4,791 bases of DNA from a virus (Duplodnaviria; Heunggongvirae; Uroviricota; Caudoviricetes): the IMG/VR virus record IMGVR_UViG_2648501669_000004, positions 1 through 4,791 of that record; one strand, 5' to 3'. Position numbers and translations under genes: made by a program. Under the pieces are notes generated by a model. The model made no database searches. It had not been told where the DNA came from and was given only the letters and a program-made list of their open reading frames with translations. Of the stretch, positions 1,592 to 2,924 are shown in pieces. How positions within the stretch are numbered: the first letter of the stretch is position 1; the number at the start of each line of letters is the position of its first letter.

Positions 1592-1864
1592 ATGGCGCAC
1601 AATACCAAACATCACAATTCTGATACCGACCTTGCCAGCAGGCACGGGCGGCGTTCTCATGCATTCAAATCTGACTGGTTCCAGCATGATCCATGCACTG
1701 AAGAACAGGCCGAATGGCTGATTCAGAACTACCGCAGACGTGGTTACGAGTTTCAGAAAGACCTCAGCCTCGACTTCCGACACTGGATCATCTCAGTCAG
1801 ACTGCCTTACTCTGAACGCCCACCGCGTCCGTCCCGCACATTCCAGCAACGGATCTGGAGGTAA
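1592..1864 (+). CDS. Small hypothetical protein, positional analogue of Rem (Qin prophage), about 90 aa
   Basis: Same frame as track ORF 1466..1864, but the 5' part of that ORF overlaps the hok 3' hairpin and terminator, so the start is placed at the first ATG after the terminator (1592). Stop TAA 1862-1864 lies directly after the GGAGG of the next gene, suggesting coupling. The protein is basic, His/Arg-rich, with no recognised domain. The start site is uncertain. Confidence 0.45.
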   Translation: MAHNTKHHNSDTDLASRHGRRSHAFKSDWFQHDPCTEEQAEWLIQNYRRRGYEFQKDLSLDFRHWIISVRLPYSERPPRPSRTFQQRIWR

Positions 1865-1865
1865 C

Positions 1866-2924
1866 GTGCGGGTATTGCTTCGACCTGTTCCGGTACCGGA
1901 ACTCGGGCTGGTGGTCCTTAAGCCTGGTCGTGAATCCATGCAGGTATTTCATAACCCTCGAGTGCTGGTGGAGCCGGAACCGAAAAGCATGCGCGGTCTG
2001 CCGTCCGGAGTCGTTCCTGCCATTCGCCAGCCGCTGGCGGAAGACAAAACATTGCTGCCGTTTTTCAGTAACGAACGGGTGATTCGTGCTGCTGGCGGCG
2101 CTGGTGCACTTTCTGACTGGCTGTTGCGTCATGTCAAATCCTGCCAGTGGCCTCATGGCGACTATCACCACAGCGAAACCGTCATACATCGTTACGGTAC
2201 CGGCGCGATGGTGTTGTGCTGGCACTGCGACAACCAGCTGCGTGACCAGACTTCCGAATCACTCGGGCAACTTGCTCATCAAAACCTGTCAGCATGGATG
2301 ACTGACGTCATCCGTCACGCAATGAATGGCACACAGGAGCGGGAATTATCGCTGGCTGAATTATCCTGGTGGGCGGTCTGCAATCAGGTAGCGGACGCAT
2401 TACCGGAGGCAGTATTACGTCGTTCGCTGGGATTGCGTGCGGATAAAATCCTCTCAGTGTACCGCGACAGCGACATCGTACCTGGAGAGCAGACAGCCAC
2501 CAGCATACTGAAGCAGCGCACAAAAAATATTGTGCTACCGCCTCACGTCCACCAGCAACAGAGCCTGCCACAGGAAAAGACGGTGGTCAGCATTGCCGTT
2601 GATCCGGAGTCTCCGGCTCAGTATCTCCAGCGCCAGAAACCACAACGGGAAGAGATGCCCGTATACACGCGCTGGGTAAAAACGCAGAAATGCGTGACGT
2701 GTGGCAATCAGGCAGATGATCCGCACCACATCATTGGTCATGGGCTGGGAGGGATGGGAACAAAGGCTGACGATTTGTTTGTTATTCCGCTGTGCCGCAA
2801 ATGCCATAACGAACTGCATGCTGGGGTAAAAGATTTTGAAGAAAAACACGGCAGCCAGCTGTTGTTGCTGATTCGTTTTTTAATGCACGCGAAAAATTCG
2901 GGTGTCCTGAAGTGGAAAGCATGA
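1866..2924 (+). CDS. DUF968-family protein with C-terminal HNH-like zinc-binding motif (YdfU-like)
   Basis: Track ORF 1740..2924; start reassigned to GTG 1866, preceded by GGAGG at 1857-1861 and the upstream stop at 1862-1864. This gives about 352 aa, close to the roughly 349 aa I recall for E. coli YdfU. C-terminus CVTCGN...DPHHIIGHGLGG...CRKCHNELH is an HNH-like CxxC...HH...CxxCH...H motif; a second Cys/His cluster lies mid-protein (CQWPHGDYHH...CWHCDNQL). An alternative ATG start is at 1938. Confidence 0.8.
   Translation: MRVLLRPVPVPELGLVVLKPGRESMQVFHNPRVLVEPEPKSMRGLPSGVVPAIRQPLAEDKTLLPFFSNERVIRAAGGAGALSDWLLRHVKSCQWPHGDYHHSETVIHRYGTGAMVLCWHCDNQLRDQTSESLGQLAHQNLSAWMTDVIRHAMNGTQERELSLAELSWWAVCNQVADALPEAVLRRSLGLRADKILSVYRDSDIVPGEQTATSILKQRTKNIVLPPHVHQQQSLPQEKTVVSIAVDPESPAQYLQRQKPQREEMPVYTRWVKTQKCVTCGNQADDPHHIIGHGLGGMGTKADDLFVIPLCRKCHNELHAGVKDFEEKHGSQLLLLIRFLMHAKNSGVLKWKA

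Follow-up and report, generated by a model that had tools for sequence, protein, structure and literature searches.

What does the DUF968 protein encoded between a small ORF and rusA in this prophage do, and is the small protein translated ahead of it involved in the same step? The stretch of DNA analyzed here (the window; 4,791 nucleotides, positions 1 to 4,791 of the IMG/VR record IMGVR_UViG_2648501669_000004) comes from a lambdoid, Stx-type Escherichia prophage, of which it is the recombination ("nin") block. The genes form a tightly packed string, in which the small ORF is followed by DUF968, RusA, and Q:

1100-1522, + strand: hok/sok type I toxin-antitoxin locus and terminator, directly 5′ of the small ORF
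1592-1864, + strand: small ORF, 90 aa, member of phrog_1212, core at nt 1667-1861
1857-1868, + strand: coupling junction (GGAGG, TAA, one base, GTG), read from the sequence
1866-2924, + strand: DUF968/YdfU-family protein, 352 aa, GTG start (Pfam DUF968, phrog_96)
1866-2255, + strand: N-terminal domain of the DUF968 protein, residues 1-130 (AF2 model and ligand conservation)
2256-2651, + strand: helical middle region (residues 131-225) and low-confidence linker (about 226-262) (AF2 model)
2652-2909, + strand: C-terminal His-Me finger (HNH) nuclease domain (zinc knuckles, catalytic and metal-binding His)
2926-3306, + strand: RusA Holliday-junction resolvase (Pfam RusA, 2e-16)
3303-4124, + strand: Q-type late antiterminator (Pfam Antiterm, 2.6e-51)

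Gene Order

The hok/sok locus with its terminator marks the 5′ limit of the transcription context of the small ORF. It contains a sok match in Rfam (121.7 bits at 1100-1275), a HOK_GEF match in Pfam, and a terminator-like hairpin at 1495-1512 with a T-run after it; no sigma-70-like promoter was found between this terminator and the ATG at 1592. At the other end of the string, the rusA ATG lies 1 nt past the DUF968 stop, in agreement with the DNA-processing cluster proposed in a preliminary description of this DNA, and the start of Q overlaps the rusA stop by 4 nt (ATGA). DUF968 is found directly 5′ of Q in Escherichia, Klebsiella, Kluyvera, Enterobacter, Phytobacter, Kosakonia, and Symbiopectobacterium. 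RusA adjoins it in most loci, the exceptions being Enterobacter/Buttiauxella loci, Qin-type prophages, and one Klebsiella phage. Taken alone, the locus is a largely ordinary lambdoid prophage block.

The block directly precedes Q and, in some strains, also precedes stx2. A ydfU allele has been tied to haemolytic uraemic syndrome in a genome-wide association study (PMC11950266), presumably via linkage.

A Conserved Junction Couples the Small ORF to DUF968

The small ORF consists of 90 codons and ends with the stop TAA at 1862-1864. Ahead of this stop, the GGAGG at 1857-1861 is supplied by the last two codons (Trp-Arg, TGG-AGG), and one base past it the GTG at 1866-1868 opens the 352-residue ORF that ends at 2924. 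The equivalent GTG is used as the start by RefSeq PGAP and in the K-12 annotation, and the junction TGGAGGTAA[C/T]GTG was found in 9/9 Escherichia loci and 79/79 IMG/VR loci. Both the GTG start and the tight coupling to the upstream ORF, as originally proposed, are upheld by these observations. The homologous start in other genera is an ATG in the same alignment column, for example in a Klebsiella phage (ATGCGAGCT, encoding MRA). In other phages, TGG-GGG or TGG-AGG together with a stop/start junction precedes the NinG, YbcO-like, and RusA genes. The terminal Trp codon of the small ORF also serves as a Shine-Dalgarno element; the last two codons are the ribosome-binding site of the nuclease gene, and both genes are therefore co-translated.

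The Small ORF Encodes a phrog_1212 Protein

The small ORF matches the profile of the unnamed family phrog_1212 (E 3e-37), with residues 25-90 spanning all 66 profile positions. Strong purifying selection is confined to residues 26-90, where dN/dS is about 0.1 compared with about 0.7 in the N-terminus, and this low ratio indicates that the ORF is truly coding. Disorder is predicted for the N-terminal 25 residues, whose sequence varies. Earlier, the product had been called a small basic protein: small it is, but its basic character resides mostly in these poorly conserved 25 residues. The predicted fold is a generic β-α-β-β unit, and searches of PADLOC, Pfam, and NCBIfam gave no match, including to toxin/antitoxin or defence-system families.

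The designation of this ORF as Rem-like does not hold. K-12 Rem (83 aa, MMNIEEL...) has no blastp match to the small ORF, and the best tblastn match of Rem in the whole window is a 20-residue chance one on the other strand, with nothing credible besides. In K-12, rem and the homologue of the small ORF are separate adjacent ORFs, the latter being an unannotated 92-codon ORF (L003:2807-3085(-)) located between rem and ydfU and abutting ydfU. Lambda NinD, NinE, NinF, and NinH, DLP12 NinE, and YlcG were also rejected as identities for the small ORF (hhalign probabilities ≤ 0.2%). A phrog_1212 protein is likewise unannotated in phage N15. As the analysis also shows, reference genomes contain gaps and inconsistencies in annotation.

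The C-Terminal Domain Is a His-Me Finger

The HNH nature of DUF968/YdfU is already known, both in print and in PHROGs. The family has been placed in the His-Me finger superfamily, in group 7 with YbcO, since 2017 (Jablonska et al.; PMC5714182), and the window protein matches phrog_96, "HNH endonuclease," across residues 1-349 (E 2e-163). The Pfam DUF968 model (PF06147) matches residues 160-344 with 211.8 bits (8.8e-63; gathering threshold, 27.8 bits), and database proteins annotated as DUF968 are 92%-97% identical to the window protein. The preliminary description gave the function as unknown; this holds for YdfU itself but only partly for the family, in view of the published classification (PMC5714182), the PHROGs entry, and the work on the homologue Gp16 (PMC12817073).

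An HNH-type module had been noted at the C-terminus, and conservation and fold both confirm it. The motif, C276-x2-C279 ... H287 H288 ... C310-x2-C313-H314 ... H318, is kept position by position in 65-77 of 81 family representatives, except at position 313, where His (39 representatives) alternates with Cys (25). H288 is kept in 77/81, H314 in 70/81, and H318 in 68/81. The zinc knuckles are assigned to C276-x2-C279 and C310-x2-C313, the catalytic role to H287/H288, and metal binding to H314 and H318. The domain has the β-β-α-metal fold of the His-Me finger/HNH superfamily, with the catalytic His ending strand 1 and the metal-binding His/Asn on the helix.

Among other Pfam models, HNHc_6 (PF16784) matches with 31.1 bits against a cut-off of 26.6, covering model positions 119-184 of 204; the NinB/Orf-like N-terminal domain of HNHc_6 proteins is not present in the window protein. 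RecA_dep_nuc (P1 Ref, PF16786) is absent from the matches even at E ≤ 10, the similarity being structural only, and NinG (PF05766) has no match in the window protein. The generic HNH and HNH_5 models match weakly (E about 0.07).

The N-Terminal Domain Carries a Second Cys/His Site

The AF2 model of the DUF968 protein has a mean pLDDT of 87, and its domain arrangement is unreliable because the pTM is 0.56. The middle region is built of helices at residues 131-152, 163-172, 181-188, and 211-219, and pLDDT falls below 50 at residues 230-239. No similarity between the middle region and NinB/Orf was detected by hhalign, and a Foldseek search of the PDB with the whole model returned nothing significant.

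The second, metal-site-like cluster reported for the middle of the protein is real as a conserved feature. It consists of C93/H101/C118/C121 (C118-x2-C121; nt 2142-2228) and is kept as C-[CH]-C-[CH] in 67/79 representatives, with the ligand patterns CHCC (34), CCCH (23), and CHCH (10). In the AF2 model, it is located on a β-hairpin and helix (strands 105-110 and 113-118, helix 119-125). W119 and D122 are retained in 69/79 representatives each and Q94 in 68/79; the near-invariant D122 directly follows C121. The N-terminal domain is also present as phrog_11007. Comparisons by hhalign and Foldseek and against the PDB revealed no detectable relative of known function, and a sequence search of the PDB with the domain profile gave no relative. 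In the representative library, the DUF968 N-terminus is seen joined to tail, capsid, and portal proteins; these apparent fusions were judged to be assembly chimeras and not real architectures.

Motif spacing and predicted β-β-α topology agree between the N-terminal element and the C-terminal HNH motif, and the hhalign path is roughly in register. As a diverged duplicate of the HNH motif, the element was not significant in hhalign (E 0.058, probability 0.9%), and a possible duplication is retained as a suggestion only. H102, the counterpart of the C-terminal catalytic His, is retained in just 32/79 representatives. The N-terminal domain is therefore more likely to recognize DNA or a partner than to be a second active site.

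Four Nuclease Families Follow the Small Gene

The surroundings of the small ORF were surveyed in 170 viral contigs from IMG/VR, a census seeded with three single small-ORF sequences and hence biased toward those three clades. In 169/170 loci, the next gene 3′ of the small ORF encodes a nuclease, and in 168 of these the two are separated by ≤ 7 nt. This nuclease gene is DUF968 in 79 loci, YbcO-like in 42, NinG in 39, and RusA in 9. The small gene goes with the slot and not with a particular nuclease; its occurrence before four different nuclease families, together with the NinB distribution below, is the new result of this analysis. Co-conservation of the small ORF with DUF968, put forward earlier as a check, is real but not specific to DUF968, and some DUF968 loci in Enterobacter, Shigella, and Symbiopectobacterium are without the small ORF. 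In N15-like phages, it adjoins exonucleases instead. Lambdoid gene order is also conserved for reasons other than interaction, and adjacency of the small ORF is therefore no proof of partnership.

NinB shows a complementary distribution: it precedes the small ORF in every locus that lacks DUF968 (90/90) and in none that has it (0/79). In the DUF968 phage Tritos, NinB is missing from the entire genome.

Proposed Role of the DUF968 Protein

The sections above show the gene structure, the signals for coupling, the fold, and the conservation of residues and gene order; a nuclease activity, its substrate and metal, and roles for the N-terminal domain and the small protein are inferred. On balance, we favor the reading that DUF968 belongs to the phage recombination module as a zinc-stabilized nuclease and is translated together with an accessory protein. 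DUF968 is predicted to be a multidomain DNA nuclease, in which the C-terminal 85 residues, with all catalytic and zinc ligands present, form a zinc-stabilized His-Me finger (HNH) domain of the YbcO/Gp16/Ref type. DNA would most likely be nicked or cut with a divalent metal held by H314/H318 and H288 as the general base. The N-terminal 130 residues probably hold a second, structural Cys/His zinc site on the β-β-α element. The substrate is probably DNA that is branched or a recombination intermediate, with RusA acting in the same pathway, and the protein occupies the slot taken in other lambdoid phages by NinB and NinG, or by NinB and a YbcO-like HNH protein. The small ORF encodes a real protein with a 66-residue core, which probably assists the nuclease step as an accessory factor. 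The published His-Me classification arrives at the same functional guess for DUF968 (PMC5714182).

A wider proposal is tentative and perhaps doubtful. Here, phrog_1212 would serve NinG/Rap, YbcO-type HNH, RusA, and DUF968 alike in temperate enterobacterial phages, as a co-translated accessory subunit or regulator of general use, and DUF968 would be a fused NinB-type mediator and YbcO-type nuclease, its N-terminal zinc domain replacing NinB.

Alternatively, DUF968 may resemble P1 Ref and PhiNM1 Gp16 in cutting only or mainly at a RecA filament or D-loop, a reading we consider rather unlikely. The nuclease domain is homologous to that of the RecA-interacting Gp16, and DinI, which binds the RecA filament, is a frequent neighbor in related nin regions; however, the link between Gp16 and RecA was proposed by its authors to run via the NinB-like N-terminal domain (PMC12817073), which is absent here. 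Kluyvera-type prophages carry a phage recA and a LexA-DNA-binding-type gene just upstream of the small ORF, RusA, and DUF968, but this association with recA is seen in one clade only. The lack of a Pfam RecA_dep_nuc match and the presence of a folded domain in place of the basic disordered N-terminus of Ref also argue against it.

It is less probable still that DUF968 damages the host as a nuclease, with the small protein as its co-translated inhibitor or immunity factor, in a layout like that of type II toxin-antitoxin systems. A small, translationally coupled upstream gene is reminiscent of antitoxin-toxin operons, and the homologous nuclease Gp16 is toxic to the host on expression (PMC12817073). 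A specific inhibitor would nevertheless not be expected to precede four nuclease families and to adjoin the exonucleases of N15-like phages, nor to be missing from several DUF968 loci, and neither the generic fold of the small protein nor the searches of PADLOC and toxin-antitoxin families point in this direction. A free-standing homing endonuclease or a terminase-associated HNH protein of the HK97 gp74 type is very improbable: HNH domains are common in both roles and the generic HNH models match weakly, but the gene keeps its place immediately ahead of Q from genus to genus, beside RusA in most, is not near terminase or cos, interrupts no other gene, encodes a large conserved N-terminal domain, and has YbcO, Gp16, and Ref, not homing enzymes, as its nearest relatives.

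The part worth following is the comparative pattern, with a strongly conserved, never-studied small protein that is translationally coupled to four recombination nucleases. The small-gene pattern and the mutual exclusivity of NinB and DUF968 bear on the organization of the lambdoid NinR recombination pathway, still poorly understood beyond Orf and Rap.

Comparison with Known Nucleases

The closest known system is YdfU of E. coli K-12 (Qin prophage, b1560; Pfam DUF968), which is about 79% identical to the window protein over 348 residues. The two share a GTG start abutting the same small ORF, the three-part architecture, and the position before the Q gene. Qin differs in having no rusA between ydfU and Q and in carrying, upstream of the small ORF, rem (b1561), a gene that the window lacks. 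YbcO of the DLP12 prophage (PDB 3G27, Pfam DUF1364) aligns with the window nuclease domain in hhalign (82%) and consists of the nuclease domain only, without the 260-residue N-terminal part; NinB/YbcN is encoded upstream of it, unlike in the window locus.

The S. aureus phage protein PhiNM1 Gp16 (Pfam HNHc_6) has an HNH domain with motif spacing identical to that of the window protein (CxxC-x8-H ... CxxHH-x3-H), and hhalign relates the two at 95.5% (E 1.4e-8, 37% identity over 67 columns); Gp16 also scores above the DUF968 cut-off. Experimentally, it is a dsDNA-binding, RecA-interacting nickase (NAR 2026, PMC12817073), for which metal-dependent nuclease activity was demonstrated and the zinc-finger Cys/His residues are essential (PMC12817073). 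Gp16 is a protein of 223 aa from a Gram-positive phage early region, with a NinB/Orf-like N-terminal domain, whereas the N-terminal domain of the window protein is unrelated and carries its own Cys/His site. P1 Ref (PDB 3PLW), a RecA-dependent HNH endonuclease with a disordered basic N-terminus, cuts RecA-bound DNA only and has no sequence-family match to the window protein.

Lambda NinG (Rap), a branch-specific endonuclease, is likewise a His-Me finger nuclease of the nin region encoded upstream of Q. Its similarity to the window C-terminal domain is not significant (hhalign 11% over 13 columns), and its domain layout differs. NinG is accompanied by NinB in 39/39 small-ORF IMG/VR loci, whereas DUF968 occurs without it. 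In Gifsy-2, SPN3UB, GF-2, and Klebsiella phages, a member of the small-ORF family lies just before the NinG gene and is coupled to it by the same stop/start arrangement.

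Organization of the Window and Its Occurrence in E. coli

The 4.8 kb of the window make up the late-early ("nin") region of an Escherichia lambdoid prophage; as a locus it is a routine example of a type already known. The genes are arranged in the following order:

Features of the window
50-583, DUF551 gene
583-978 (+), unknown gene, 131 aa, phrog_1621
1100-1275 and 1270-1425, sok RNA and hok of a hok/sok locus
1592-1864 (+), small ORF, 90 aa
1866-2924 (+), DUF968 gene (YdfU family), 352 aa
2926-3306, rusA
3303-4124 (+), Q antiterminator
4352-4549, 65-aa gene
after the 65-aa gene, DNA methyltransferase, start only

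The 131-aa ORF overlaps the stop of the DUF551 gene by 1 base and encodes a C-x..-C-x2-C stretch, followed by a long charged helix predicted to be coiled-coil-like. In Q, a DnaJ-type CxxCxGxG zinc-finger region lies ahead of the Antiterm domain (Pfam DnaJ_CXXCXGXG, 30.4 bits, just below the cut-off of 32.7). A hypothetical protein called by PGAP on the opposite strand at 1407-1664 (-), with an equivalent CDS at 4514-4693 (-) of comparison locus L001, overlaps both the hok terminator and the beginning of the small ORF; the call is probably spurious. Within the coding sequence of DUF968, a sub-threshold Rfam match to the archaeal C/D-box snoRNA model sR55 (2264-2315 (-), 24 bits versus 35) is almost certainly due to chance.

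The same arrangement is present in complete E. coli genomes at 90-96% identity. Of 5426 such genomes, 4824 match some part of the window and 42 have a match that spans 80% or more of it; in strain ETEC1746 a block of this type is followed directly downstream by tRNA genes and stxA2. An allele of ydfU and one of Q (ybcQ_1) are among 26 accessory genes linked to haemolytic uraemic syndrome in Irish STEC isolates, with odds ratios of 4.3 and 5.4 (PMC11950266), which is consistent with hitch-hiking of the block with stx2. Escherichia-, Enterobacter- or Kosakonia-type prophage sequence is also borne by contigs binned as Veillonella parvula, Geobacteraceae and Caulobacter segnis MAGs (L009, L011 and L016), likely through binning contamination; L016 also appears chimeric upstream of rusA.

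The Small ORF and Its Junction with the DUF968 Gene

The preliminary description placed the DUF968 start at GTG 1866, directly after the upstream stop with GGAGG in between, and both features are read in the sequence. The small ORF ends at TAA 1862-1864, the GTG comes 1 base later, and GGAGG 1857-1861 lies within the final two codons of the small ORF, TGG AGG. Exactly the same layout appears in the PGAP (RefSeq) annotation of two E. coli strains, and K-12 ydfU starts at the same GTG. The 12-nt junction TGGAGGTAA[C/T]GTG was found in 9/9 Escherichia loci and in all 79 IMG/VR loci bearing the small ORF and DUF968 pair. In a 32-sequence alignment most family representatives start at the GTG 1866 column (M-R/K-x-L-L), the codon there being ATG in other genera. 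Judged on sequence, GTG 1866 thus appears the best supported of the start choices. A possible 5′ extension, to GTG 1740, would overlap an ORF whose own reading frame shows purifying selection. Other pipelines place the start elsewhere: in HannyBb (L217:11353-12330) it is annotated 72 nt downstream of the GTG, and in Tritos (L218:38579-39526) even further in, and an intergenic gap then seems, falsely, to follow the small ORF; RefSeq and K-12 use the GTG 1 base past the stop. Annotation of the DUF968 start is therefore inconsistent.

The small ORF truly codes for protein. In seven Escherichia loci, dN/dS is 0.03-0.25 for codons 26-90 and ~0.3-2 for the first 25 codons, which carry indels in multiples of three. 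Phrog_1212 (unknown function) matches exactly the 66-residue core, and no match was found in Pfam, NCBIfam or PADLOC. The label "Rem-like" given to it earlier is wrong, as K-12 Rem (83 aa) resembles neither the small ORF nor the translation of the window in any frame. In the K-12 Qin prophage, rem lies upstream of a 346-bp "gap" preceding ydfU, and it is this gap that holds an unannotated 92-codon ORF (MG1655, NC_000913.3 complement 1644306-1644584; L003:2807-3085 (-)). Its product is 76% identical to the small protein, it abuts the ydfU GTG in the same manner, and in other strains PGAP calls its equivalent a hypothetical protein. A "very strong Rho-dependent terminator upstream of ydfU" has been published (PMC9160355); its position falls within this supposedly non-coding stretch. 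Clear but unannotated homologues are also present in phage N15 (L040:2001-2213; NC_001901.1 about 35939-36151), reading MKNTPFKQGPMSR...PKPSKTFQQRIWE, and in Pantoea phage PA-1 (L044:1801-2025).

A C-Terminal HNH Domain and a Putative Mid-Protein Zinc Element

The HNH assignment of DUF968 is not new, being already in the literature and in PHROGs. Jablonska et al. (2017) grouped DUF968 with DUF1364/YbcO in His-Me finger group 7, naming YdfU, recorded RusA and Q as its neighbours and proposed a role in recombination (PMC5714182). Phrog_96 ("HNH endonuclease") matches the protein end to end; Pfam DUF968 spans residues 160-344, and HNHc_6 also exceeds its threshold at residues 267-328. The AlphaFold model (mean pLDDT 87, with 32 diverse homologues as input) contains the following parts:

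Predicted architecture of the DUF968 protein
1-130, N-terminal domain
131-225, helical region
after the helical region, low-confidence linker
strands 285-288 and 306-309 and helix 311-319, C-terminal beta-beta-alpha unit, then three helices

In profile comparisons the C-terminal domain matches YbcO, the DLP12 prophage HNH protein (82%, E 1e-5), and more strongly Gp16 of S. aureus phage PhiNM1 (95.5%, E 1.4e-8, 37% identity), a full-length HNHc_6 protein that also exceeds the DUF968 threshold. The Gp16 motif C145-x2-C148 ... H157 ... C181-x2-H184-H185 ... H189 has the same spacing as C276-x2-C279 ... H288 ... C310-x2-C313-H314 ... H318 in DUF968. These positions are conserved in 65-77 of 81 representatives, except position 313, which is His (39) or Cys (25), either a possible zinc ligand; D303 is invariant. 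The predicted fold, the links to YbcO and Gp16 and the conserved motif therefore bear out the HNH-like metal fold proposed from sequence, and the preliminary description was largely correct overall. In seven proteins of the representative library (P0247, P0266, P0283, P0295, P0297, P0298 and P0350) the DUF968 N-terminal 150-300 residues (EKGCQWPHSDWHSENM... type) are joined to tail-tip, tail-collar, capsid or portal domains, most likely through chimeric assembly or gene calling.

The mid-protein cluster also has the signature of a putative structural zinc site. C93 and C118 are each present in 76/79 representatives, and at positions 101 and 121 the residue is invariably Cys or His, one compensating for the other (C-H-C-C in 34, C-C-C-H in 23, C-H-C-H in 10, four Cys never). 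In the model, C118-x2-C121 sits where a beta-hairpin (105-110, 113-118) meets helix 119-125, the same topology as the C310-x2-C313 knuckle, and the spacing C-x7-HH ... C-x2-C-[D/H]-N is common to both halves of the protein. Profile-profile comparison of the two halves was not significant (E 0.058, probability 0.9%), and H102, the equivalent of the C-terminal catalytic His position, is conserved in only 32/79 representatives. The element is therefore read as a zinc-stabilised recognition module, not a second active site; it is possibly a degenerate HNH copy. The N-terminal domain has no PDB relative by sequence and no similarity to NinB/Orf, unlike the Gram-positive family members, whose N-terminus is NinB/Orf-like.

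The Small ORF Precedes Several Nucleases, and DUF968 Loci Lack NinB

Co-conservation of the small ORF with DUF968, surveyed at 21 DUF968-encoding loci from species-representative genomes, was upheld in part. In every intact Escherichia/Shigella copy with a protein identity of 78% or more, the small ORF lies directly against DUF968, and remnants persist in degraded copies; in Kosakonia and Phytobacter only rusA intervenes. It is absent from the DUF968 loci of Enterobacter, Buttiauxella, Symbiopectobacterium and a second Shigella type. By tblastn the family occurs in 61 of 50,697 phage records, from phages of Escherichia, Salmonella, Klebsiella, Cronobacter, Citrobacter, Enterobacter, Hafnia, Yersinia, Edwardsiella, Pantoea and Erwinia. 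It lies immediately before ninG (Gifsy-2, SPN3UB, Edwardsiella GF-2, a Klebsiella phage), before a 96-aa YbcO-like HNH gene and then rusA (mEp237, Cronobacter phiES15), before DUF968 (a Klebsiella phage), beside exonuclease genes (N15, PY54, PhiR46_1), or before rusA and then DUF968 with a LexA-DNA-binding-type gene upstream (Kluyvera and Enterobacter prophages). A phage recA is also nearby in the Kluyvera prophages; in L028-L031, of this type, a RecA homologue (361 aa) and a 130-aa LexA_DNA_bind protein are encoded just upstream of small ORF-RusA-DUF968-Q.

A census of 170 IMG/VR loci, with neighbours classed by HMMs built for the analysis, gave a uniform pattern, although the three seed sequences used to collect the loci and the redundancy of E. 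coli prophages bias it. Summed over the four classes, without de-duplication between them, the sample includes no more than 85 different small-protein sequences and 133 different nuclease sequences.

Gene order in the census
small ORF > DUF968 (> RusA), 79 loci
NinB > small ORF > YbcO-like (> RusA), 42 loci
NinB > small ORF > NinG, 39 loci
NinB > small ORF > RusA, 9 loci
truncated contig, 1 locus

Measured from the small-ORF stop, the first aligned nuclease residue is a median of -3 to +3 nt away, with one outlier at 410 nt. In most clades a terminal Trp codon and a G-rich codon (TGG-GGG, TGG-AGG or TGG-GAG) lie 4-8 nt ahead of the nuclease start, and the conserved C-terminal Trp therefore doubles as a Shine-Dalgarno element. 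NinB is immediately upstream in 90/90 loci without DUF968 versus 0/79 with it; neither the complete genome of the DUF968 phage Tritos nor any further DUF968 locus examined contains it. The behaviour of the small-ORF family and this exclusivity are new comparative observations, the sole element here with some novelty.

A Proposed Junction-Processing Module

The block probably serves as the phage's junction-processing module. The analysis shows how the genes are arranged, their coupling signals, the predicted fold, which residues are conserved and the synteny, whereas everything on activity is inferred. The best-supported account has three parts. DUF968 would be an active HNH enzyme, stabilised by zinc, that cuts or nicks intermediates of recombination or replication in the RusA pathway. 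The N-terminal zinc domain, together with the helical region, would provide substrate or partner recognition, and may functionally replace the NinB-type mediator that is separately encoded in NinG- and YbcO-type phages. The small protein would be made in fixed proportion with the nuclease via translational coupling.

RecA-directed action of DUF968, like that of the P1 endonuclease Ref, is plausible; Ref is its best structural match, and recA, lexA-like and dinI genes are neighbours. The reading of the pair as toxin and antidote, with the small protein inhibiting the nuclease, loses weight, since the small gene is found with several kinds of nuclease and some DUF968 loci lack it. A homing or packaging role does not fit the synteny.

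For Gp16, a 2026 paper (PMC12817073) demonstrates dsDNA binding, nickase activity and an interaction with RecA, along with host toxicity and a positive effect on phage replication; the residues of its zinc finger are essential. In Gram-positive phages Gp16 is a literal NinB-HNH fusion, paralleling the way in which DUF968 would stand in for NinB.
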